Of a stretch of DNA of 16,244 bases, positions 2,800 to 16,158 are shown one piece after another. A program made the translations under genes and the position numbers. The stretch is from positions 1 through 16,244 of the forward strand of contig JBBSVW010000100.1 in NCBI GenBank assembly GCA_038046605.1, read 5' to 3'. The first letter of the stretch is position 1, and every line of letters starts with the position of its first letter. The notes beneath the pieces were generated by a model. That model was not told the DNA's origin and did no database searches. It saw only the letters and a program-made list of their open reading frames with translations. This DNA comes from Candidatus Micrarchaeota archaeon (GTDB taxonomy: Archaea > Micrarchaeota > Micrarchaeia > Norongarragalinales > SBBD01).

Positions 2800-3822
2800 G
2801 TGATGGAAATGAGGGAAGAACTGGAAGTAACAGCGCAGCTGCAGCAGGATCCGGAGCCGAAAGGAAAAAGGAAGGAAAAGAAAATCACCTCAATTGAGGA
2901 TATTCCGGGTGTTGGGGGTACAATTGCCGCAAAACTTCGGGATGCGGGATACGATTCACTAATGGCACTAGCCGTTTCCATGCCCGTTGAGCTTGCGGAA
3001 GTCGCCGGGATCGGAGAAGGCACCGCAATCAAGGCAATCAATGCGGCGCGCGATGCCATGGACATGGGCTTTGAAACCGGCGACAAGGTTCTTGAGAGGC
3101 GAAAATTCATTGGCCGAATCACCACAGGTTCCAAGGAACTTGACAGCCTGATAGGCGGGGGCGTTGAAACGCAGGCAATTACTGAGGCGTTTGGAAAATT
3201 CGGCAGCGGCAAATCGCAATTGGCATTCCAGCTTTCCGTAAACGCGCAGCTTCCAGTTGATCAGGGCGGATTAGGCGGCGCAGTCCTATTCATAGATTCG
3301 GAAAACACCTTCCGGCCCGAGAGGATCGCCCAAATTGCGGTCTCAAGAGGGCTTGATCCGGATGTAATCCTAAAAAACATCCACGTGGCGCGCTCGCAAA
3401 ATTCCGACCACCAGATGCTCCTCGTGGATAAGGCAGGAGACCTCATCAAGGAGAAGAATATCAAGATCGTGATCGTGGATTCCCTCACCTCATCTTTCAG
3501 GAGCGATTACATCGGCAGGGGCATGCTTGCGGATAGGCAGCAAAAGCTCAATAAGCATCTGCACACGCTCCAAAAGCTTGCGGACATCTACAACCTCGCC
3601 ATCTATGTGACAAACCAGGTGATGGATAGGCCCGACGTATTATTCGGCGACCCCACTGTGCCAATTGGCGGAAATGTCCTTGCCCACCAGAGCACCTACC
3701 GGCTGTATTTCAGGAGGAGCAAGGAGGACAGAAGGGTTGCAAAAATCGTCGATTCCCCCAACATGCCGGATGGTGAATGTGTTTTTCGCGTGTCTGAGAT
3801 CGGTATATCGGATTGCGAATAG
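2800..3822 (+). CDS. radA: DNA repair and recombination protein RadA (real start probably ATG 2803 or 2809)
   Basis: N-terminal HhH (IEDIPGVG), polymerisation motif GFETG, Walker A GKFGSGKS, Walker B IVIVDS, and [28 protein letters not shown] motifs. AGGTGA RBS at 2798-2803. Confidence 0.98.
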
Positions 3823-4839: not shown

Positions 4840-6885
4840 ATGCGTGGAAGTGCATCCCTCATCGCCGTTTTTTTCCTTTTATTGGTAGCTTTACCTTCGC
4901 TTGTGCGCGCTGCAAATGACGCCTTAGGCCTCCAGCAAACCGCCGTCATAGTCTTGAATTTTGCAGACAGCAATTATTCTTTCAACCTAACCAGCATGCC
5001 CGCCGGCGCCGCAAGCATGGACCGCTGGTACCGGGAAAATTCATTCAATAAGGCATATTTCAATTTCACATATTATGGGCCATATAAGTTGAATATTTCT
5101 GCAACCTGCACGGGCTCCTCGATCCGGCTGCCCGGCATTGCCGCTGCGGATAAGGATGTTTATTTCCCCCATTTTTCAAGAGTAATCATGATCGTACCGC
5201 CCGTCATAGGATGCCCCTGGGTCGGGCTATCTACTGGCGGTAAGGCGACCTATGCTACCGCAGATGGATCCGCCAGCTTTTCAATTAGCATTCTCCGCTC
5301 GTATGGCTTTTCTTATTCCATCGCGCTTCACGAGATGGGGCATGGTTTTGGGCTTGAGCACGCGAATAGCCTTTATTGCGGCGCACAAATAAATCCCGGA
5401 TCGGTGAACCTGAAAACATGCGATTTTACCGATGGCGGGGATAATTTTGATGGAATGGCATCAAACCTGGTGACTTACCATTTCAGTGCCTTCAACAAGA
5501 TCCAGCTGGGGTGGCTTGAGCCAAAAAATTATAGGATTGCTTCTGAAGGTACCTTCGATCTCGAGCCGCTTGAATTAGCCTCTGATAATTTGCAGGCGTT
5601 GATTGTGCCTTACGGCAATGTATCCTGCACAACTGGTGGCAATAAGGCATGCTACTATGTGGAATACCGCCGGCGCATCGGATATGACAATAAGGTCGGC
5701 GGGCCAGAGGGCCTTCTGATAAGGTTTGCGCCCCAGGATTTCCAGCAAACATATGGGAAGACTTACTTGATTGATGTGAATTATTCGACGGCTCACAATC
5801 GTGATGCGATGCTAAAGCCGAATGATAAATATGTCGATACAGTAAATGGGATAGAAATAATTGCTGGTGTGCAGACCGTCTCAAAGGCTAGCGTTACGGT
5901 GAGAAAAATAGGCGCTCCCACTCCTTCCCCATCGCCCAGCCCTTATCCCTCCCCCTCGCCTGTTGCCTCGCCATCGCCCTCCCCAATACCGTCCGCTTCT
6001 CCCTCCCCAACCGCATCACCCACCCCTCTTCCTGCAACCGGATCCATATATGCAAGGAGCAATCCCTCAACAGCATCTGTATTCCTTGATTTCATTAGCC
6101 GGGGCTTAACCCCGATTATTCTATCCAATCTATCTATTGGTTCGCATCCACTTGAATTCCGCAAAACAGGATACCAGAATTATCAAATCATTGTTGATGT
6201 GCAGGGCGGGAAGACAATTAATGTGACCGCGAATTTGACGGCAATTCCTTCCCCATCGCCAAGCGTTTCCGCCTCACCAAGCGCATCAATAGTGCCATCC
6301 CCATCCATTTCAGCCTCACCATCCGTCAATCCAAATGCCACTATTTCCCCCTCGCCGTCGATAAATCCAAACGCAACAATAAGCCCATCCCCTTCAATCA
6401 ATCCAAATGCGACTTTCACGCCTACACCGGTTCCAACAAGCCCCCCAAGTGGCGGAGGGGGATCCGGTTCTGGCGCTGGTCCAGGCCCAAGGGGGAGCCC
6501 AACGCCATCGAAGGCAGCAAGCGCATCACCAACCATTTCGCCCTCGAAAAATTCGGGAAACCTAGGCGAATATATTCAAATAAAAAAAGAAGTCGATGAC
6601 CTGATATTGCAGCTTCCGGAGAGTGGGGGGGAAGTTAGGGATGCACTCAAGCTAACCGAAGTCGCAAGGGATTTGGAAAAAGCCGGAAGAAGGCAGGAGG
6701 CAATTATACTGATGGGCAAGGCGAGGGAAATAATGCTTAATGCGCTTGCGGAATCGCGCACAACAAAAACAGCTTTCTCATGGGCATTTGCAATCATCCT
6801 GATTTTGGCGATAATTTCTATTGCAATCTACCACATATTGCAGATGCGAAAGCATGAGAAGAAATTGGATTACGGGCTAAAATAG
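4840..6885 (+). CDS. Secreted, membrane-anchored zinc metalloprotease (M11 gametolysin/M6-like) with PEGA domain and Ser/Pro-rich linkers
   Basis: N-terminal signal peptide, HEMGHGFGLEH metzincin motif, DGM Met-turn, and WL...YYVEYR region. PEGA domain at about 6034-6237 (GSIYARSNPSTASVFLD...G.TP...GSHPLEFRKTGY). C-terminal TM helix with a basic tail. Confidence 0.88.
   Translation: MRGSASLIAVFFLLLVALPSLVRAANDALGLQQTAVIVLNFADSNYSFNLTSMPAGAASMDRWYRENSFNKAYFNFTYYGPYKLNISATCTGSSIRLPGIAAADKDVYFPHFSRVIMIVPPVIGCPWVGLSTGGKATYATADGSASFSISILRSYGFSYSIALHEMGHGFGLEHANSLYCGAQINPGSVNLKTCDFTDGGDNFDGMASNLVTYHFSAFNKIQLGWLEPKNYRIASEGTFDLEPLELASDNLQALIVPYGNVSCTTGGNKACYYVEYRRRIGYDNKVGGPEGLLIRFAPQDFQQTYGKTYLIDVNYSTAHNRDAMLKPNDKYVDTVNGIEIIAGVQTVSKASVTVRKIGAPTPSPSPSPYPSPSPVASPSPSPIPSASPSPTASPTPLPATGSIYARSNPSTASVFLDFISRGLTPIILSNLSIGSHPLEFRKTGYQNYQIIVDVQGGKTINVTANLTAIPSPSPSVSASPSASIVPSPSISASPSVNPNATISPSPSINPNATISPSPSINPNATFTPTPVPTSPPSGGGGSGSGAGPGPRGSPTPSKAASASPTISPSKNSGNLGEYIQIKKEVDDLILQLPESGGEVRDALKLTEVARDLEKAGRRQEAIILMGKAREIMLNALAESRTTKTAFSWAFAIILILAIISIAIYHILQMRKHEKKLDYGLK
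6310..6420 (+). repeat. Three 36-nt coding tandem repeats (SPSPSINPNATI-like)
   Basis: The translation repeats SPS(V/I)NPNAT three times with synonymous divergence. Confidence 0.85.
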
Positions 6886-6941: not shown

Positions 6942-7418
6942 TTACCATTTGTAAATTTTCCTAATCGCTTCCTCTAGCATCAGTTCCAGCAGCAGCGCCT
7001 CGTCCTCCGAAAGGCTGATTTGCATCGCGTTCACTTTCCCATCCTTTGTTTGCTGCGACAATTTGAAGAAATAGCCAAAATCGCCCTTTTGAACAACCAG
7101 CGCATTGTTCTTCGTATCCTCGGAGGAAGCATAATTGCCCTTTCCGGGGTCGTGGAAGAGATTCGCAAGCTTTGATCTGCCCTTTAGCACCAATAGGATT
7201 TTGCAAATGTCAACATCTGCCATTTTGAATGCGAGTTTGTTTGCCCAATCGAACTTTCTTTCCTCAAGCTGCTTTCCAATTTCGAAAAACACTGCCTGTT
7301 TTTCCGGCGCAAAATCAAACTGGCATGCACTTCCCTGCATTTGCTTGTTTGGCTTGTAGAATTTGAGGATGCTTTCGTAGTTTTTGCCCTCAATTTTTCC
7401 CGCCGTTTTTGTATCCAT
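6942..7418 (-). CDS. Whirly-like ssDNA-binding protein (158 aa)
   Basis: ATG at 7418 with a GGGTGG RBS. Motifs RKFDWANK, LFHDPGKG, GYFFKLS and terminal W are colinear with plant Whirly motifs as I recall them (RQYDWSRK, FFHDPNKG, GHFFNLS, LLGW). Confidence 0.75.
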   Translation of the reverse strand: MDTKTAGKIEGKNYESILKFYKPNKQMQGSACQFDFAPEKQAVFFEIGKQLEERKFDWANKLAFKMADVDICKILLVLKGRSKLANLFHDPGKGNYASSEDTKNNALVVQKGDFGYFFKLSQQTKDGKVNAMQISLSEDEALLLELMLEEAIRKIYKW

Positions 7419-7478
7419 GTCGCCCACCCTAAAAAAACAACGCATTCCGGATTATTATTTGCGACGTTTTTATTCATA

Positions 7479-9621: not shown

Positions 9622-10518
9622 TTATGGGCGGACTCTTTCCATTGCTTCTTCCCCCTGCCTTTTTTCCCCATCAAGTTCCGGCTTCCTACTCCTTGTTTGC
9701 ACGCCAAACCTGAATAGTGCCTGTTTTGCTCCCCAAAGTAGGGACCTGATTGCGATGCTGCCATGAGAGGCAATTCCCATCTCCTTCTCATATTCACTAA
9801 CATATCTCCTAAATGTCTTTGGGGCGTATCGCTTTAGGGCAAATATTTTTTGTACGCCTTTTCTTGCCCTTAGGCTTTCCTCCTCAAAGGGCTCTTCCCT
9901 GAGAAGGCTTGTAAATAAGTTTGGCAATCCGTTTTCCTTGTCGAGCCTAACGTCCATTATGTCGTCAAAAAACTGGGCAGCCAATCCAAAATGGCGAAAC
10001 CTTCTCTCAATATCGCCCCCGTTTTGAACGCCATGGATCTTGTTCATCAACTTGGCAACTAGGGTGCAATATTCGCCAGTTGTCTTGAGCCTGTAATTGT
10101 AGGTTTCTTTAAATGTTGAAGGCTGTTTTTGTGAGATTGCATTAAGCATCCTTTGCCTACCAACTTGAAAAATCCCATGCAATTCCCTAAGCGGAGCCTG
10201 CGTCCTTGCGCCCTCTAATGACCTGTACACGTGCCTTGCTGAAAATAGCTCGGGATGAAATGGCGCTTTTGCTGGCTGCATTTTCCCTTCGTCGATGATG
10301 TCGTCAAATTTGAAAACGTAGTCCCTAACAGATCTTGCAACAGTTTGCGAGTTAGATTTTAGGATATCCTTTGGTTTTACCCCGCTCATTTCAGCCCAAA
10401 CCATTTGGAATGGCGGTATGCGGGTGCCGCGGTTGGGCACATTGAATAGAAAATAGGCGATATTGGTTCCGAGAACTTTGGCGAATTGAAAAACCATTTC
10501 GGGGTATTCACCTTTCAT
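9622..10518 (-). CDS. Class I isoprenoid synthase-fold protein (polyprenyl synthetase/terpene synthase-like)
   Basis: FDDIID (first Asp-rich motif), KTTG, and FGLAAQFFDDIMD (second Asp-rich motif). ATGA overlap with the upstream DUF424 gene. Confidence 0.75.
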   Translation of the reverse strand: MKGEYPEMVFQFAKVLGTNIAYFLFNVPNRGTRIPPFQMVWAEMSGVKPKDILKSNSQTVARSVRDYVFKFDDIIDEGKMQPAKAPFHPELFSARHVYRSLEGARTQAPLRELHGIFQVGRQRMLNAISQKQPSTFKETYNYRLKTTGEYCTLVAKLMNKIHGVQNGGDIERRFRHFGLAAQFFDDIMDVRLDKENGLPNLFTSLLREEPFEEESLRARKGVQKIFALKRYAPKTFRRYVSEYEKEMGIASHGSIAIRSLLWGAKQALFRFGVQTRSRKPELDGEKRQGEEAMERVRP

Positions 10519-10835: not shown

Positions 10836-10927
10836 TTGGTTCAACCTTGAAAAGATGTTATCAAGAGAATGTTGGCGGTTTGAATTAATAATGGTTGGGT
10901 ATAATCGCCGGCAATTACCTCCCAAAA

Positions 10928-10949
10928 CGATGCATCACGTGAAGCATCG
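10928..10949. repeat. 22-bp near-perfect palindrome (TGCnnCACGTGnnGCA family)
   Basis: CGATGCATCACGTGAAGCATCG has one mismatched pair. Confidence 0.85.
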
Positions 10950-10998: not shown

Positions 10999-11014
10999 TG
11001 CATCACGTGCGGCA
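10999..11014. repeat. TGCnnCACGTGnnGCA palindrome copy
   Basis: TGCATCACGTGCGGCA; 15 bp are identical to 14672-14686. Confidence 0.85.
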
Positions 11015-11044: not shown

Positions 11045-11082
11045 ATGGCTACATTTTACAAAGATGAGGAATTTGTGTCCAT
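11045..11082 (+). repeat. 38-bp inverted-arm element, copy 1
   Basis: ATGGCTACATTTTACAAAGATGAGGAATTTGTGTCCAT; compare 14628-14665 and 15517-15554. Confidence 0.9.
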
Positions 11083-11106
11083 GCTCTCACATAATGAAAA
11101 GGTTAA

Positions 11107-11129
11107 TAAGATTATCTTACCAGTAAGAT
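11107..11129 (+). promoter_or_regulatory. Putative autoregulatory operator of the AbrB-PIN operon
   Basis: Overlapping palindromes TAAGAT-T-ATCTTA and ATCTTAC-CA-GTAAGAT lie between a TATA-like TTAATA and the AGGTGA RBS. Confidence 0.6.
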
Positions 11130-11143
11130 TATAGGTGATAAGG

Positions 11144-11422
11144 ATGGCAGTTCATGTGGAGGTGCAAGTGACAAAAATGTCCTCGAAAGGGCAGGTTGTG
11201 ATTCCGGAGCAAATCCGCGAATCTTTGGGATTGACGGCAGGCTCAGTTTTTGCTGTATACGGGAGGAAGGATGCCGATTCAATTTTGCTCAAAAGGCTGG
11301 TCATGCCTGAACCTGCAAAGGCATTTGAAGAAATGGCAAAATGGGGAACAGCCCATGCAAAAAAGGAAGGCTTAGACGCATCGCCACAGGAAATAGTCCG
11401 GAAGGAGCATCAAGTAAAATAA
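11144..11422 (+). CDS. AbrB/MazE/SpoVT-family antitoxin
   Basis: TKMSSKGQVVIPEQIRESLGLTAG motif. AGGTGA RBS favours ATG 11144. Confidence 0.92.
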   Translation: MAVHVEVQVTKMSSKGQVVIPEQIRESLGLTAGSVFAVYGRKDADSILLKRLVMPEPAKAFEEMAKWGTAHAKKEGLDASPQEIVRKEHQVK

Positions 11423-11436
11423 AGGCATGATTTTTT

Positions 11437-11838
11437 ATGGTGAAAGTTGTTTTCGACACAAACGTCCTGGTTAGCGCTATGCTTTCTAATCGCGGCTCAT
11501 CCTACAAGCTGGTTAGCCTTTGTGCACAGGGTGAATTTACTGGTTATACTTCCGGAGCGCTAATGCTTGAATTCAAGCAAGTAATCCAGCGTGATTTTAA
11601 AGTTCCCATTGAAAGGGCGGAGCAGATGGTTGATGTTTTCCTCCTATTCCTCAAACTTGTGGAGCCTGATGTGCGCCTTAATGTCATTACTGACGAGGCC
11701 GACAACCGAGTTTTGGAATGCGCCCTTGCCGTTTCGGCGGATTACATCTCCTCCTGGGATCCCCACCTAACTGACCTTGGCGAATACCAGAAAACCCGGA
11801 TTTTGAACCCTGGAAAGCTTCTTGCAATTATTGCCTGA
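11437..11838 (+). CDS. PIN-domain (VapC-like) toxin
   Basis: VVFDTNVLVS, E, DEADNRVLECA and ADYISSWDPHL form the acidic PIN active-site pattern. It sits directly after the AbrB gene. Confidence 0.92.
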   Translation: MVKVVFDTNVLVSAMLSNRGSSYKLVSLCAQGEFTGYTSGALMLEFKQVIQRDFKVPIERAEQMVDVFLLFLKLVEPDVRLNVITDEADNRVLECALAVSADYISSWDPHLTDLGEYQKTRILNPGKLLAIIA

Positions 11839-11915
11839 AGGAAAGGAGTCTTAGGTCGGAGTTTAGTTATAATTACAAGTAATTGTAAGCATTTGATAGT
11901 ATTTTCGAATAACGG

Positions 11916-11975
11916 AAGAATCAGAAAAAACCCGCAAACCGTAAAGAAAATAAGAAAAATAAAAAAGAAAGAAAA
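11916..11975 (-). terminator. Conserved pyrimidine-rich terminator-like repeat, copy 1
   Basis: Plus-strand GAATCAGA...AAGAAAAATAAAAAAGAAA is shared with 13480, 14718 and 15601, each lying 3' of a minus-strand gene. Confidence 0.7.
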
Positions 11976-12064
11976 ACAAGTGAAAAAGGATGCCGGCAGT
12001 TGCTGGACTTGCGAAACCAATGCAGCAATCACGGGGAAGCAATCTGCAGGTGCCCTTAGGCAAT

Positions 12065-12334
12065 TCAAGCTATTAAAGTGAGCAATCCATCAACCTGAAA
12101 AATGCCTTCCTGCGTCAAAGAAACAGATTTGTTATCCTCCACCACTAAGTTGCATTTCTTAAGCTCTTCCAGGCCTTTCAGCGAATCTTTCCCTATTTTC
12201 TCCTCTATATGCCTCCTCGATACTTTAGGATTGTATTTTGCCAAATACAGGAGTATGTCTATGTTGTTATTTTCCAATAGGATTTTCTTCAGCATGGTTG
12301 CGTTGTTTTGAAACCTTGCGAGCTCTTCCCCCAT
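12065..12334 (-). CDS. Small winged-helix DNA-binding protein
   Basis: IDILLYL...SRRHIEEKIG...LEELKKCNLV...VSLTQEG wHTH pattern. GAGTGG RBS before ATG 12334. Confidence 0.75.
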   Translation of the reverse strand: MGEELARFQNNATMLKKILLENNNIDILLYLAKYNPKVSRRHIEEKIGKDSLKGLEELKKCNLVVEDNKSVSLTQEGIFQVDGLLTLIA

Positions 12335-12383
12335 ATTTACCACTCATATATTCTATGCAAGAGAGTATTTATCCCTAACTCCC

Positions 12384-13076
12384 TTACTGCGACTGCACTT
12401 TAAACCTTTTCGCATCCAGCCGTTTTTTCCATGGTTCGTAATCCGGGCCCCCAAGGCCCCTGCCCCTATTCGTTTGTTTTTGAATGATGCCTGCCAATCG
12501 GTATATTCGAAGGGCGCTATAAGCCAGTATCTTATCGATTAATTCGCCTTTCCTGCAAGTTATTATCGTTGGGAAATCCTTGAAATATTCGGAAGGGTTG
12601 CTTTTCAGGCTGTTGAATTTGTCCTCGTCAATGAAATATACTATCTTTCCATGGAAGATATAGTTGCTGCTTAAATAGTTTTGCTCGGTTAATGTGCCCT
12701 TTCCATCACCGTCAATGAACACGATCAATTGGTGGACAATGCAGCATTGTTCCAAAATTGCAACCTGGCTCAATCCGCCGGACTTTTTTGGGTCATAATA
12801 GGAGTCGATGGTTTCCGCATAAAGGCCCCGTTCCAGCAGCTTATTTTTTATGTCCAAAAGCAGCTGCTTCTTTTCCTGCGTGAACCAATCCCCAAGAACA
12901 AGGATTTTAAGGCTCCTAAGCAGGATGAATTGTTCCGATTCCTTCTTTTGGAGCTCCTTGCGGATCCTATCCCGGATTTTACCAAATTCAGCGGAATCAA
13001 AATTAGGTATGTTATTCTGCAGTTTCTCCTTGGTTTTGCGGTAGTAGTCGTCCATGCCGTTTCTTACTAAAGGCAT
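12384..13076 (-). CDS. Hypothetical protein with probable nucleoside 2-deoxyribosyltransferase/TIR-like (flavodoxin-like) domain
   Basis: KILVLG...IKNKLLERG...LIVFID...GTLTE...KIVYF resembles the NDT strand/helix order with a G-T-x-x-E motif. The CDS is solid; the fold is inferred. Confidence 0.6.
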   Translation of the reverse strand: MPLVRNGMDDYYRKTKEKLQNNIPNFDSAEFGKIRDRIRKELQKKESEQFILLRSLKILVLGDWFTQEKKQLLLDIKNKLLERGLYAETIDSYYDPKKSGGLSQVAILEQCCIVHQLIVFIDGDGKGTLTEQNYLSSNYIFHGKIVYFIDEDKFNSLKSNPSEYFKDFPTIITCRKGELIDKILAYSALRIYRLAGIIQKQTNRGRGLGGPDYEPWKKRLDAKRFKVQSQ

Positions 13077-13101
13077 TAGCCCAAAACTTAATAATTATAG
13101 C

Positions 13102-13190
13102 GAATAAGGCAATTATTGGAACTTTTCCTTGCCTTATTCTCATATAGCGGTTTTATTTGATAGTTCCGATATTTTACTTAACCGCTATAT
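13102..13190. repeat. Two adjacent perfect 11-bp inverted repeats
   Basis: GAATAAGGCAA/TTGCCTTATTC (13102-13112, 13129-13139) and ATATAGCGGTT/AACCGCTATAT (13142-13152, 13180-13190). Confidence 0.85.
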
Positions 13191-13479
13191 ACTCCTTGCA
13201 GGAACTGTCCGAAAGACAACCGATTACATTTTTGAGGCTCTTATAGATGCATGCACCGGCATTTTTTCAAAATTTCCGCGTTGCAATTCAACTTTATGGT
13301 TCCATTTCTATGATATAGCCGTAGTTTACCGGAAGGATCCCACTTGCCTTCTATTCTGTCATATTAGAGGGAGGGTGTAGTTGCCTCAAAGAAACGGTTA
13401 TGAGTTGCGAACTGTATTATGTCATCAGCTTATCGTTTCAAACCCAACCATCCGCTCTAAGCCTGCCGCTAACCAGTTG

Positions 13480-13578
13480 AAACCAAAGAATCAGAATAAC
13501 GCCGGAAACCAAAAGAAAAGAAGAAAAATAAAAAAGAAAAGGGGAGATTTGCGGAGCCTTGCCTCTAAAGAATCCGTC
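13480..13578 (-). repeat. Terminator-like repeat copy 2 with a diverged pilin C-terminal remnant
   Basis: 13480-13544 closely matches 14718-14791. Minus-strand 13578-13549 translates to DGFFRGKAPQ versus the pilin end GGFVRGKVG*. Confidence 0.75.
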
Positions 13579-13616
13579 ATTTTTCCATCCCATGGTTCCT
13601 CTTCTGGTAAACCCCC

Positions 13617-14531
13617 TTATTCAAACGCCGAAAGCCACAAATCAAGGGATTGTTCAACATCGGAAGCAATAAGCATCGCAAATGGCCAAAAATCCCCAGA
13701 ATCCGCCTTATCGAGAGCCGAATAGTATGCGCGCCTTTCCTCCTTCCTTAGTATGGTGGGCGGGAAACTGCCTTTCATAAGCCGCAGGTTCATTAGGAGC
13801 CTTGCAAGCCTTCCATTGCCGTCAACAAATGGATGGACTTTGACGGTTTGGTAGTGGATTTTTACGGCCGATTCTAGGGCTTTAATGCCAGTACTCTTAT
13901 CGTTCAGCTCCCCATAAACTGGCTGCATCAATTCGGGCACTTTCCTCCAATTCGGCAAGGTAATTTTTGACCCTTCGATGTAAACCTGCTCGTGCCGATA
14001 AAAGCCGGCGTTTAGGGGGTCGATTTTATCCAATATTGCGGCATGAAGGCTAAGCACATCCATTTCCGTTATTTGCGCGTTTTTGGCGGCGATTTTTTCC
14101 AATAGTTGCAGGGCATCCTTATGGTTCGTCGCCTCAAGGTGTTCCTTTAATGATTTTCCCCGGATCGTTAGGCCCCTTCGTAAAACAAGCCACGTTTCCC
14201 TTAAACTTAGGCGGTTTCCCTCTATTGCGTTGGAATGATAAGTCATGTCCACCTCGAATTTTTGTTTAAGCTTTTCCACTGCAGAGGGTGGCAGGGGCCG
14301 AAGCGAATTAAGCTTTTTCAGCTTCTCTTCAAGTATTCTGGCAAGCGAGCTTTCGATCCATCCGCCTTCCTTGGGAATGGCCAAACCTTCCGCCTTGGCG
14401 TAATCCTCCGCTTCCCTCTTCGTTGGGAAGTATTTCAGGGCTTTTTGCGAAACCTTGCCCTTAACCCTTGTGTTTTCCACCAATTCGTAATAGTGCGAGT
14501 TGCCTTTGCGCTTTCTCCGGATGAATGCCAT
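13617..14531 (-). CDS. fic: Fic-family protein (AMP transferase) with N-terminal beta-rich basic domain
   Basis: Canonical HPFVDGNGRLAR motif and autoinhibitory SNAIEGN motif N-terminal to the core. Confidence 0.95.
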   Translation of the reverse strand: MAFIRRKRKGNSHYYELVENTRVKGKVSQKALKYFPTKREAEDYAKAEGLAIPKEGGWIESSLARILEEKLKKLNSLRPLPPSAVEKLKQKFEVDMTYHSNAIEGNRLSLRETWLVLRRGLTIRGKSLKEHLEATNHKDALQLLEKIAAKNAQITEMDVLSLHAAILDKIDPLNAGFYRHEQVYIEGSKITLPNWRKVPELMQPVYGELNDKSTGIKALESAVKIHYQTVKVHPFVDGNGRLARLLMNLRLMKGSFPPTILRKEERRAYYSALDKADSGDFWPFAMLIASDVEQSLDLWLSAFE

Positions 14532-14627
14532 GCCATATTGTAGTGCCTACTTGTTTTTAAGTTTATCTGTTTTACTTCCCCACTACACTAAAGTGCATCT
14601 TTGGAATTAACTCTCGAAAGGCCCCCT

Positions 14628-14665
14628 ATGGCTACATTTTCAAATATTGTGGAAATTGTGTCCAT
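14628..14665 (+). repeat. 38-bp inverted-arm element, copy 2
   Basis: ATGGCTACATTTTCAAATATTGTGGAAATTGTGTCCAT. Confidence 0.9.
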
Positions 14666-14670
14666 TTGAG

Positions 14671-14686
14671 CGCATCACGTGCGGCA
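14671..14686. repeat. TGCnnCACGTGnnGCA palindrome copy
   Basis: CGCATCACGTGCGGCA. Confidence 0.8.
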
Positions 14687-14717
14687 GTGATCACATAGGG
14701 CTTTGGCAAATGGATGA

Positions 14718-14809
14718 AAACCAAAGAATCAGAAAAAAAGCCGGAAACCAAAAAGAAAAGAAGAAAAATAAAAAAGAAAGGGAAAAGGGGGAATTAACCC
14801 ACCTTTCCA
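14718..14809 (-). repeat. Terminator-like repeat copy 3 with an exact duplicate of the pilin 3' end
   Basis: TTAACCCACCTTTCCA at 14794-14809 is identical to 15646-15661 (GKVG* plus 1 nt) and abuts the purine tract. Confidence 0.9.
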
Positions 14810-14839
14810 AGGGGCAAACATCGGTATTGGCGAAAAGCT

Positions 14840-15202
14840 TCATTTCTTCCTATAGCCGAATATCTTATCATAGGAGTCGTGGTCGATAATGTTCAATATG
14901 AACGCCACAACTTCAATTTCGTTCCCATCCATCGTATATAGCATGCGCCAATAGCCTGTCAACTCAATCCTGAATAGGTTTGTTACATCCATGGCTCTCG
15001 GGATGAGCTTTTTGGGTATGTTGTCGCCATATGTGGGGTTAATTTTGAGGATTTCTATCTTCTGCCTGATTGATTTGAGCAGTTGCAGTTCCTCAGAATT
15101 GGCTATGCCTTTTGCTTGCTGCTCTCCTACGATCCGATTCAGCTTCTCGAATTCTTCCTTGGCCTGGCCCTTCAAAAGAATGTGGACGGTCCGGTTTTTC
15201 AT
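14840..15202 (-). CDS. RelE/ParE-like toxin
   Basis: LKINPTYG...NLFRIELTGYWRMLY...ILNIIDHDSYD fits a RelE-type pattern. ATGA overlap with the upstream gene. Confidence 0.7.
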   Translation of the reverse strand: MKNRTVHILLKGQAKEEFEKLNRIVGEQQAKGIANSEELQLLKSIRQKIEILKINPTYGDNIPKKLIPRAMDVTNLFRIELTGYWRMLYTMDGNEIEVVAFILNIIDHDSYDKIFGYRKK

Positions 15203-15468
15203 ATCTCCAATGCGCCTTTTTTCAGTTTCTCAAGCTCGGAAGGTGCACGGTAAATCCAGAGCAGCCCCTTGGTCGAAACGAGTATTTTGCCGCTCTCCTG
15301 AAGGTAATCCAGAATCTGCAATAATGTGGAATGCATCACTTTCTTCGGAAGCCGCCTTTTCAGTTCTGCAACCTTCACCAACTGGCCCGCTTCATTCAAA
15401 ACCTTCTCTACCATCAGCACGGTATTCAATGTTGGGGAGTGCATTATCTGCATCTGAACGCTTTTCAT
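15199..15468 (-). CDS. Small winged-helix protein, putative antitoxin/regulator
   Basis: AELKRRL...HSTLLQILDYLQESGKI HTH pattern. TTTATATA box at 15491-15498 is about 23 nt upstream of ATG 15468, implying a leaderless start. Translationally coupled to the RelE-like gene. Confidence 0.75.
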   Translation of the reverse strand: MKSVQMQIMHSPTLNTVLMVEKVLNEAGQLVKVAELKRRLPKKVMHSTLLQILDYLQESGKILVSTKGLLWIYRAPSELEKLKKGALEI

Positions 15469-15516
15469 GTATGTATTTATGCTAATTAGGTATATAAATA
15501 TATCTATTATTCCCAT

Positions 15517-15554
15517 ATGGCTACATTTTACACTAATGAGAAGTTTGTGTTCAT
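15517..15554 (+). repeat. 38-bp inverted-arm element, copy 3
   Basis: ATGGCTACATTTTACACTAATGAGAAGTTTGTGTTCAT. Confidence 0.9.
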
Positions 15555-15600
15555 CTGGACGCCAGTGCCGGAAAAAGCTCCGCTCACGGATAAAAAAATT

Positions 15601-15644
15601 GAATCAGGAAAAAAGAAGAAAAATAAAAAAGAAAGAAAAGGGGG
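15601..15644 (-). terminator. Pilin terminator (terminator-like repeat copy 4)
   Basis: Minus-strand CCCCCTTTTCTTTCTTTTTTATTTTTCTTCTTTTTT follows the pilin stop directly. Confidence 0.75.
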
Positions 15645-15645
15645 C

Positions 15646-16158
15646 TTAACCCACCTTTCCACGGACGAATCCGCCGGAGTCAGTCTTTGAAAGGCCACTT
15701 TGGCTGTCTGTATAAGTTACGGATATTGTCCAATCATATGAATCTTCCTTATTCCCAGGCAAATTCGCTGTTGAACACCTAACGTAAACTCTCCCATTAG
15801 GAGCAACATTCCTTGTTGTTGGCCCTATTAGTCCGGTTTGGGCATTGGAGGCATCGCATTCAGTTAATACGGTAGGTGCGCCATTTCCAGCAACAGCCCC
15901 TCCAACTAATGTGATGGATCTGCCAACCGCATTTCCAAGCACTATTACGACACTGTCATTTCCAGATGCAGGGGTATCTATTACTAATTGATCGACGCAC
16001 GTAAACGATCCGAATCCACCGCACTCATTCCCTCCGCGGAACTTGCTCGGGTTGAAAACTCCGGTATACCATAGTACCGCAGCGATAATTACTATAGCCA
16101 ATATGGCCCAGCCGTAGGTAACCAAATACTCCAAAGCCGATTGTCCTCTCAATTTCAT
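15646..16158 (-). CDS. Archaeal type IV pilin-like protein (class III signal peptide)
   Basis: KLRG|QSALEYLVTYGWAIL prepilin cleavage site with E+5, hydrophobic helix, Cys pairs, and AGGTGA RBS. Confidence 0.92.
   Translation of the reverse strand: MKLRGQSALEYLVTYGWAILAIVIIAAVLWYTGVFNPSKFRGGNECGGFGSFTCVDQLVIDTPASGNDSVVIVLGNAVGRSITLVGGAVAGNGAPTVLTECDASNAQTGLIGPTTRNVAPNGRVYVRCSTANLPGNKEDSYDWTISVTYTDSQSGLSKTDSGGFVRGKVG

Follow-up and report, generated by a model that had tools for sequence, protein, structure and literature searches.

The window analysed here, a 16,244-nucleotide stretch of DNA that forms the entire contig C100 of a 1.64-Mb archaeal genome (Candidatus Micrarchaeota archaeon), was found to contain three copies of a 38-bp element. 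The copies are real members of a palindromic control-site family and, judged from their sequence, are probably protein-binding regulatory sites (operators) of a class-wide family whose members stand in the promoters of Fic genes. In a pattern scan of the window, ATGGCTACATTTT-N15-TTGTGTYCAT was matched exactly three times, from 11045, 14628 and 15517 (sites 1, 2 and 3; Table 1), all on the plus strand, with an expectation of 0 from 200 shuffles. With up to 3 mismatches allowed, the same three copies were found to be the sole matches in the genome (1,635,789 bases in 106 contigs), and the reversed-pattern control gave 0. The three elements that a sequence-only reading had placed at these positions were thus recovered by both searches.

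The arms of the element (positions 1-13 and 29-38) were found to be identical at 22-23 of 23 positions between the window copies, whereas the 15-nt core was identical at 7-10 of 15 and the 40-nt flanks at 8-15 of 40, which is background. This restriction of conservation to the arms points to a constraint on the arms and argues against the recent duplication of a longer segment. The right-arm variant TGTGTCCAT was present in all three copies, and the single arm change was a C to T in site 3. The imperfect inverted pairing of the arms described in the sequence-only reading was confirmed at 7/9 (ATGGCTACA versus ATGGACACA), and the core that it called variable is so in part only, as sites 1 and 3 agree at 10/15. 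The architecture consists of 9-bp inverted arms with a 20-nt spacer, and all three sites fit the family arms ATGNCTACA and TGTRNNCAT at a spacer of 20, which is rarely 19 in the family. The common plus-strand orientation, which had been taken to speak against a promoter element, was found in all three copies; that argument is weak, however, because the element is nearly palindromic and a minus-strand gene lies downstream of every copy when it is read on the minus strand.

The family was found to extend across one class. With up to 3 mismatches the element was present in 8 of 60 relatives (reversed-pattern control 0). A relaxed pattern, containing ATGNCTACA and TGTRNNCAT with the spacer free at 15-25, matched 12 of 68 genomes in the order, at 16 places with a length of 38 bp in every case (control 0), and 63 of 401 genomes in a phylum sample, all of one class, with 4 control hits. 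This last tally counts genome G094, from which none of the examined loci was taken. Our own count of the class table gave 92 distinct places, of which 78 were 38 bp and 8 were 37 bp long, followed by 6 of other lengths (33, 33, 35, 41, 43 and 43) at chance level. On these counts the fixed length is a conserved property across the class, and the invariant length read from the window copies holds in the free-spacer searches of both order and class. Full-text literature searches, judged by listings and abstracts, turned up neither this element nor a Fic operator from any archaeon.

The genome of the window contains three copies, all within 4.5 kb, and 1-4 copies were found elsewhere, mostly at one place or as a tandem pair. 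It is extremely improbable that the element is a miniature mobile palindrome, of the repetitive extragenic palindrome (REP) or miniature inverted-repeat transposable element (MITE) kind, or a leaderless mini-gene (ATG GCT ACA ...). It is palindromic and intergenic, every copy starts with ATG, and by our own reading 13-codon frames end just past the element at site 2 and at loci L022 and L026. However, 3 copies here and 1-4 in other genomes fall short of REP or MITE copy numbers, no clean insertion was found relative to genome G004, and the window frames are of inconsistent length (13, 30 and 57 codons). Viral contigs were found to contain 17 exact matches to the symmetric pattern, which look like chance: the contexts are coding-like, with no Fic and no AT-rich core, and the number is about that expected by a rough estimate.

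Outside the window 65 loci were examined (duplicates L008 and L017 excluded), 61 with a 37/38-bp element and 4 off-length. A Fic protein of ~302 aa, with the start MxFIEKQRHG..YYYLVK, was found to begin within 60 nt of the element in 35 of the 61. The gap between element and Fic ATG was 3 nt in 16 loci, 4 nt in 11 and 5 nt in 4 (31/35 at 3-5 nt), followed by 28-53 nt in 4. A 36th MxFIEKQ Fic locus, L036, was recognised by eye and has a GTG start; at L030 the contig ends where a second copy apparently begins. The MxFIEKQ Fic genes usually contain two tandem copies upstream, and 30 of 33 Fic upstream regions shared the block ATGgCtACA-N20-TGTAGcCAT, T, ATGnCCACA-AtATTTAaATA-N10-TGTAGnCAT, 3-5 nt, ATG on the Fic coding strand.

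The TATA box of this promoter was found to end 21-22 nt before the ATG. Archaeal promoters have the TATA box centred near -26/-27, and with this geometry transcription would start on the A of the ATG and give a leaderless mRNA. The arms of the proximal element, at about -41 to -33 and -12 to -4, bracket the TATA box, followed upstream by the distal element at -80 to -43. TATA-like 8-mers were present in 29/35 proximal cores versus 5/21 distal, 4/28 solo and 0/3 window cores; the window copies resemble the TATA-less solo or distal type. The proximal copy also contained a conserved asymmetry of the arms, CCACA versus CTACA. Its sequence predicts that the region upstream of MxFIEKQ Fic genes combines a leaderless core promoter, a dyad operator lying over that promoter and a further operator next to it. 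The window copies have neither feature of this home context: no core contains a TATA box, and no MxFIEKQ Fic ATG follows 3-5 nt after a proximal arm.

A run of toxin-type genes was found around the three window sites by Pfam and PADLOC scans of the window open reading frames (ORFs), and the distances in Table 1 were counted on the sequence, with start sites predicted from TATA geometry only. The TATA-like CTTAAAAA of the window Fic gene lies 22 nt before its ATG, and the same promoter design was found at orthologous or related Fic genes of genomes G004, G295, G038, G031 and G336. No Pfam family was found for the first gene of the pair left of site 3, which we call winged helix-turn-helix (wHTH)-like by a reading of its sequence. 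The start of this gene (ORF 15199-15516, minus strand) is probably 15468 and not 15516, giving an 89-aa leaderless product, since a consensus TATA box stands 22 nt before that ATG and the same promoter and start recur in genome G001.

Table 1. Elements, promoters and genes of the window, and box sets of Fic promoters
Feature	Position	Strand	Description
Site 1, 38-bp element	11045..11082	none	No TATA-like core; about -88 to -51 of predicted AbrB-PIN start
Promoter downstream of site 1	TATA-like TTAATAAG 11103-11110	+	Predicted start ~11133; GGTGAT 11134-11139; ATG 11144
AbrB/MazE-type antitoxin and PIN_3 toxin operon	11144-11422 and 11437-11838	+	Right of site 1; Pfam MazE_antitoxin 2.7e-06, PIN_3 2.8e-19
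wHTH-like gene and 230-aa gene without assigned family	12065-13076	-
Fic/DOC-family gene, 304 aa	13617..14531	-	Pfam Fic 3.5e-18; PADLOC PDC-S04 9e-35, SoFic 4e-22 (defence-candidate models)
Predicted leaderless promoter of Fic gene	14532..14587	-	Proximal box GTAGGCACTACA 14539-14550; TATA-like CTTAAAAA 14554-14561; distal box TGTAGTGGGGAA 14576-14587
Site 2, 38-bp element	14628..14665	none	About -97 to -134 of predicted leaderless Fic start; 40 nt past distal box of Fic promoter
Small wHTH-like protein and ParE-like protein	15199-15468 and 14840-15202	-	Left of site 3; ParE_like weak in Pfam (0.0084)
Promoter at site 3	TATA TTTATATA 15491-15498	-	22 nt before ATG 15468; same promoter and MK.. 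start in G001
Site 3, 38-bp element	15517..15554	none	About -49 to -86 of predicted leaderless wHTH/ParE-like operon start
RadA/Rad51	2800-3822		Points to an archaeal genome
Boxes, window-type Fic			TGTAGTGCCTAC...GTAGGCACTACA; window, G004, G295, G038; variants in G031, G336
Boxes, MHVExR-type Fic			GTAGTCAC...TGTAGTCAC; contig C13 of this genome, G152, G061
Boxes, MAFVKKK-type Fic			CCCTTACA...TGTAAGGG; two G022 loci and G061
Boxes, further Fic types			GTGCCCCCTAA; CCCCTACA/TGTAGGGG; TTAACCCCACAAA/TTTGTGGGGTTAA; GTTATCAC/GTGATAAC; TTGTGGGTATAA; AAATGTGTGGTAA

From this arrangement we infer protein binding, repression, a binder and effects at the three window sites, as follows. The operator unit would consist of two inverted 9-bp half-sites (ATGNCTACA and TGTAGNCAT, core GTAGNCA) exactly 29 bp apart from centre to centre, and this spacing (~99 Å) would suit a large dimer whose DNA-binding domains stand far apart. 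In the home context two units would act in tandem before the leaderless Fic gene, and a protein bound at the proximal unit, which lies over the TATA box, would block TBP/TFB or the polymerase and so repress. The TATA-less solo versions in the window, 50-130 bp upstream of the AbrB-PIN, Fic and wHTH/ParE-like units, would link these three toxin-type units through one shared regulator, for which they would serve as auxiliary or upstream sites. An operator shared by unrelated toxin-antitoxin (TA) modules had been the second alternative of the sequence-only reading, and it is supported by the class-wide family, by its home in Fic promoters and by the position of the window copies upstream of three predicted promoters.

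The most likely binder would be the basic N-terminal beta-sheet domain of Fic, so that Fic, like CccR, would be a toxin that represses itself; in this genome the binder would have to come from one of the resident Fic paralogs, with boxes of its own that share the GTAGNCA core. The structure model of the window Fic (pLDDT 92.7) was found to contain a class II Fic core like FICD/HYPE (Foldseek 6i7h, E 2e-17), and residues 1-50, an unannotated domain, were modelled as three antiparallel strands and a helix at pLDDT 85-88. The N-terminal region was strongly basic in 30/30 sequences, with a net charge over 40 residues of +6 to +9, the window Fic having +9 in residues 1-40. A two-copy complex prediction of the window Fic gave no verdict for or against a dimer (score 0.00, mark 0.42). 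The Fic subfamilies were found by eye to contain their own repeats bracketing the TATA box of a leaderless start in 16 of 20 fetched regions, as well as at the window and contig C13 paralogs; the other 4 regions were unclear, three having miscalled starts and one no frame. The same boxes were found to recur with the same Fic subfamily across different host families, and three box sets coexist in this genome. Boxes that track the Fic subfamily and not the host fit self-recognition and not a host regulator. These sequences and the model suggest Fic self-regulation through the N-terminal domain, which is the leading, unproven candidate for the binder.

A wider proposal, which we regard as speculative and somewhat doubtful, is that archaeal Fic is toxin and repressor in one polypeptide, its N-terminal domain reading a subfamily box code (GTAGNCA, CCCTTACA, GTGCCCCC, GTTATCAC and others) on both sides of its own TATA box. 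Detached operators such as the three in the window would then put neighbouring TA units under Fic control as a small defence regulon.

The closest parallel is CccR of Yersinia pseudotuberculosis, which is a dimeric Fic AMPylase with DNA-binding domains ~70 Å apart that represses itself through palindromes spanning its own core promoter (PMC9755527). Likewise, palindromes with half-sites 29 bp apart were found to bracket the TATA box of the MxFIEKQ Fic gene, here as read from sequence. The likeness is partial for the window Fic, whose core promoter contains different boxes and has the 38-bp site 2 outside it. CccR has a C-terminal helix-turn-helix and a bacterial -35/-10 promoter, whereas the candidate domain here is an N-terminal three-stranded sheet and helix with no recognised relative, and the promoter is of the archaeal leaderless TATA type with two tandem palindromes. 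A further difference is that no MxFIEKQ Fic gene accompanies the window copies.

Other known operators were found to be similar in part. As in type II TA systems, short inverted repeats stand before toxin-type operons (AbrB-PIN and wHTH/ParE-like), and negative control would be expected. Type II TA operators are antitoxin-specific and overlap the core promoter, whereas here the antitoxins behind the identical arms are unrelated, the arms stand 50-130 bp ahead of the predicted starts, and at sites 1 and 3 the TATA box follows downstream of the element. The sites of archaeal repressors and activators of the Lrp/TrmB type are dyad-symmetric and flank or adjoin the B recognition element (BRE) or the TATA box. 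Dyad symmetry near a TATA box is common to both, whereas the 29-bp half-site spacing is unusually wide and the sites here track a toxin gene subfamily and not a host regulon.

Archaea of the DPANN type are not growable alone and their gene regulation is almost uncharted, and a sharply defined class-wide cis-element of fixed geometry offers a directly testable regulatory system. The element stands in the core promoter of a widespread SoFic-like Fic gene, other subfamilies carry matching variants, and the N-terminal domain is a candidate for a new DNA-binding domain, one whose specificity code could be read. Should Fic turn out to repress its own gene and adjacent toxin modules, archaea as well as bacteria (CccR) would have self-regulating Fic toxins, and self-repression would explain the silence of single-gene Fic defence candidates. 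For annotation, the element marks predicted leaderless starts and would correct the one window gene start given above.

The remaining 26 of the 61 loci were found to adjoin other accessory genes, 3 of the 26 elements lying inside long ORFs, probably by chance. These neighbours included other Fic types (L014, L022 and L026), AbrB-PIN (L004 and L005) and AbrB-MazF (L010), followed by ParE pairs, DUF5678 with an aspartyl protease, PIN, SocA, nucleotidyltransferases, ATPase_2/DUF234 and AAA_14-DUF4143 ATPases, and TrmB. The AbrB and PIN proteins of L004 and L005 were found to be 33-37% identical to those of the window, behind the same arms, with the element at -86 to -49 of the predicted start compared with -88 to -51 at site 1. 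Between L004 and L005 the arms were identical at 18/18 and the core at 17/20 positions, followed by 19/60 and 46/60 in the flanks. When the two wHTH-like proteins, the ParE-like, the 230-aa and the DUF424 proteins of the window were searched by tblastn against the 65 element loci, no homolog was found; only AbrB and PIN matched, at L004 and L005.

Composites of the ~55-nt window-type Fic promoter boxes and the 38-bp element were also present, and window site 2 aligns with four loci of another family. At L022 (G336) the ~55-nt palindromic promoter was found both before and after the Fic gene with the 38-bp element after the second copy, whereas L069 (G336), L025 (G225) and L026 (G176) contained the ~55-nt Fic promoter followed by the 38-bp element without Fic between. 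Fic genes may have been gained or lost between repeated promoter copies, the repeat involved, as the sequences read, being the promoter and not the 38-bp element.

The chief rival to the operator reading is that the window copies are functionless, decaying leftovers of MxFIEKQ-Fic promoters, or of the distal copy, after the loss or replacement of Fic. This genome contains no MxFIEKQ Fic, the TATA box is lost from the window cores, and a decayed copy was found at the position of site 3 in G004. At L033 (G152:C11, ~11978-12115) all that is left of an MxFIEKQ-type Fic is a C-terminal piece, 59% identical to residues 268-299 and interrupted by one stop, directly beside a solo 37-bp element; the promoter was kept and most of the gene deleted. 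We nevertheless consider this explanation unlikely: in decaying leftovers the arms would not stay at 22-23/23 while cores and flanks drift to background, all three copies share the same right-arm variant, and the arms were found to be retained across genera in the Fic-less AbrB-PIN loci.

Several observations weigh against the window sites being operators bound by Fic. The support for this reading comes from sequence and predicted geometry, and the pattern search detects well-kept arms only, which inflates the apparent conservation. With no TATA box in the window cores, and with the core promoters lying downstream of the sites, a simple occlusion mechanism cannot apply there. Genome G004 keeps the Fic gene (85% DNA identity) and the wHTH/ParE pair and was found to contain unrelated sequence at site 2 and a same-length stretch with decayed arms at site 3, which makes these sites dispensable; the remnant at L033 implies that some solo elements are relics. 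The MxFIEKQ-type Fic was found in 0 of 18 solo-only genomes (best 30-41% identity), 3 of which gave no Fic match at a completeness of 81-93%. This genome contains the N-terminal domain on three Fic paralogs only, none of the MxFIEKQ type, so the cognate binder of these arms is absent from the assembly and Fic binding at the window sites would need cross-recognition of the shared GTAGNCA core. No significant relative of the isolated N-terminal domain was found: neither Foldseek (best E 0.46; integrase arm-type domains 3jtz and 3rmp at only 0.7 and 1.7) nor a wide VIA-align structure search (best Z 4.5) gave a usable match, a PDB profile search reached a best E of 0.09 (a PDZ fragment), and the sole Pfam entry listed with E allowed up to 10 was DUF2188, whose 0.038 did not reach the family cut-off.

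The first alternative of the sequence-only reading, in which the copies are site-specific recombination sites bounding excisable cassettes, is very improbable. Three direct copies do stand among toxin-type modules in a lineage-specific island: the synteny shared with six same-genus genomes (DHH, JAB and DUF424 genes) was found to stop near 10865, ~180 nt before site 1, which makes the whole stretch beginning at site 1 specific to this lineage. G001 has the site 2-3 module in inverted orientation, and repeated promoter palindromes may bracket Fic genes, as G336 suggests. However, among the 25 window ORFs no integrase or resolvase was found by Pfam, only RadA, and the 20-nt spacer, with its inner 15 nt no more than 7-10/15 identical, contains no short identical crossover region. 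No contig of four public runs joins two sites, which is a weak point as contigs drop rare variants; run X4, from another study, was found to carry site 1 unchanged. The wHTH/ParE module of G001, inverted relative to Fic, is flanked by a different ~40-nt direct repeat without 38-bp elements, and the same-genus genomes that keep or invert the site 2-3 module do so without them. Fic in G336 is bracketed by the ~55-nt promoter and not by the 38-bp element, and most genomes contain a single place or a single tandem pair.

Integron attC sites are 57-141 bp long and contain a GTTRRRY core. Imperfect inverted arms, direct orientation and a neighbourhood of TA cassettes are common to the present element and to attC and tyrosine-recombinase core sites, whereas the element is 38 bp, has a long non-identical spacer, and was found without a GTTRRRY core, an integrase or recombinant forms. 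The integron reading was rejected on the missing integrase, the wrong size and the absence of a core-site motif.

That the palindrome works at the RNA level, or as a cruciform in DNA, is also quite improbable; examples would be the 5′ end or leader of a transcript running divergently from the palindromic Fic promoter, and a terminator or roadblock separating units. The C to T change in site 3 keeps a G-U pair, on the plus strand only, and by our own reading a rightward start from the Fic-type promoter of the composites would fall just before the element. The two arms of one element agree at the variable fourth base in 21/30 distal and 18/30 proximal cases versus 10-15/30 between elements, a comparison of little weight as it is uncorrected for relatedness. 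The folds of the three sites on both strands, however, were no better than shuffles (z -1.8 to +0.7, 6 folds), and an Rfam scan of the window gave 0 matches at E up to 1. Since the element of Fic promoters precedes the predicted start, it would be untranscribed in that direction, and the proximal asymmetry CCACA versus CTACA weakens the pairing.

Other repeats were found to adjoin the element. The palindromic motif TGC(A/C)TCACGTGNNGCA was present at 280-294, 901-915, 10932-10946, 11000-11014 and 14672-14686, with 23 genome-wide matches at up to 2 mismatches; it stands before site 1 and after site 2, followed ~9 nt later by TAGG(G)CTTT(C/G)GC, and is probably the site of another regulator. Two 49-nt direct repeats at 278-326 and 899-947, 94% identical and 621 nt apart, each begin with a CACGTG motif. 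An A-rich module of 60-90 nt (T-rich on the minus strand) was found after each minus-strand unit, at 11910-12003, 13480-13572, 14718-14812 and 15593-15664. The last two copies adjoin a TTAACCCACCTTTCC sequence that resembles the 3′ end of the pilin gene. Only two similar copies of the module were found elsewhere in the genome. The module looks like a duplicated terminator region marking old rearrangement joints; that it is part of the 38-bp element was considered and rejected, the module being a local terminator-like duplication joined to pilin 3′-end-like sequence in 2 of 4 window copies.

A ~45-nt motif containing CGGTCAGGCAGAGCACTTCACA was found upstream of both Fic paralogs on contig C13 of this genome (G000; near 509, 2812 and 3934), and in contig C46 of G001 (L090, ~1430 and ~2195) it forms direct repeats flanking the inverted wHTH/ParE module. 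Upstream of the 230-aa gene, a ~95-nt sequence at 13094-13190 has ~20 further copies in the genome at 90-97% identity and is also present in G005 and G001. It was found with loose contig ends on both sides in three runs, at a depth of up to 172, and with two short hairpins by eye; this could be either a repeat of the MITE kind or a gene for a small RNA.

The archaeal setting was supported by RadA/Rad51 in the window and by TFIIB in the element locus of a relative, and a tRNA scan of the window found none. The window DNA was found to be present in groundwater metagenome runs; contigs of an RNA library, at depth 2, cover Fic at 13671-13877 and the 3′ end of the ParE-like gene at 14790-14960, which neither proves transcription nor locates start sites. 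A pilin-like gene is present at 15646-16158, and its product presumably contains an archaeal class III signal peptide. A 298-aa gene at 9622-10518 (minus strand), with weak similarity to squalene/phytoene synthase (E 0.0047), lies between the JAB and DUF424 genes and was found to be absent from that spot in G001, G005 and G003. The gene at 4840-6885 (plus strand) encodes a 681-aa secreted protein with an M11-like peptidase region, a PEGA domain and long Pro/Ser-rich tandem repeats. It is adjoined at 6942-7445 (minus strand) by a homolog of the Whirly family of single-strand DNA-binding proteins, which are unusual in archaea.

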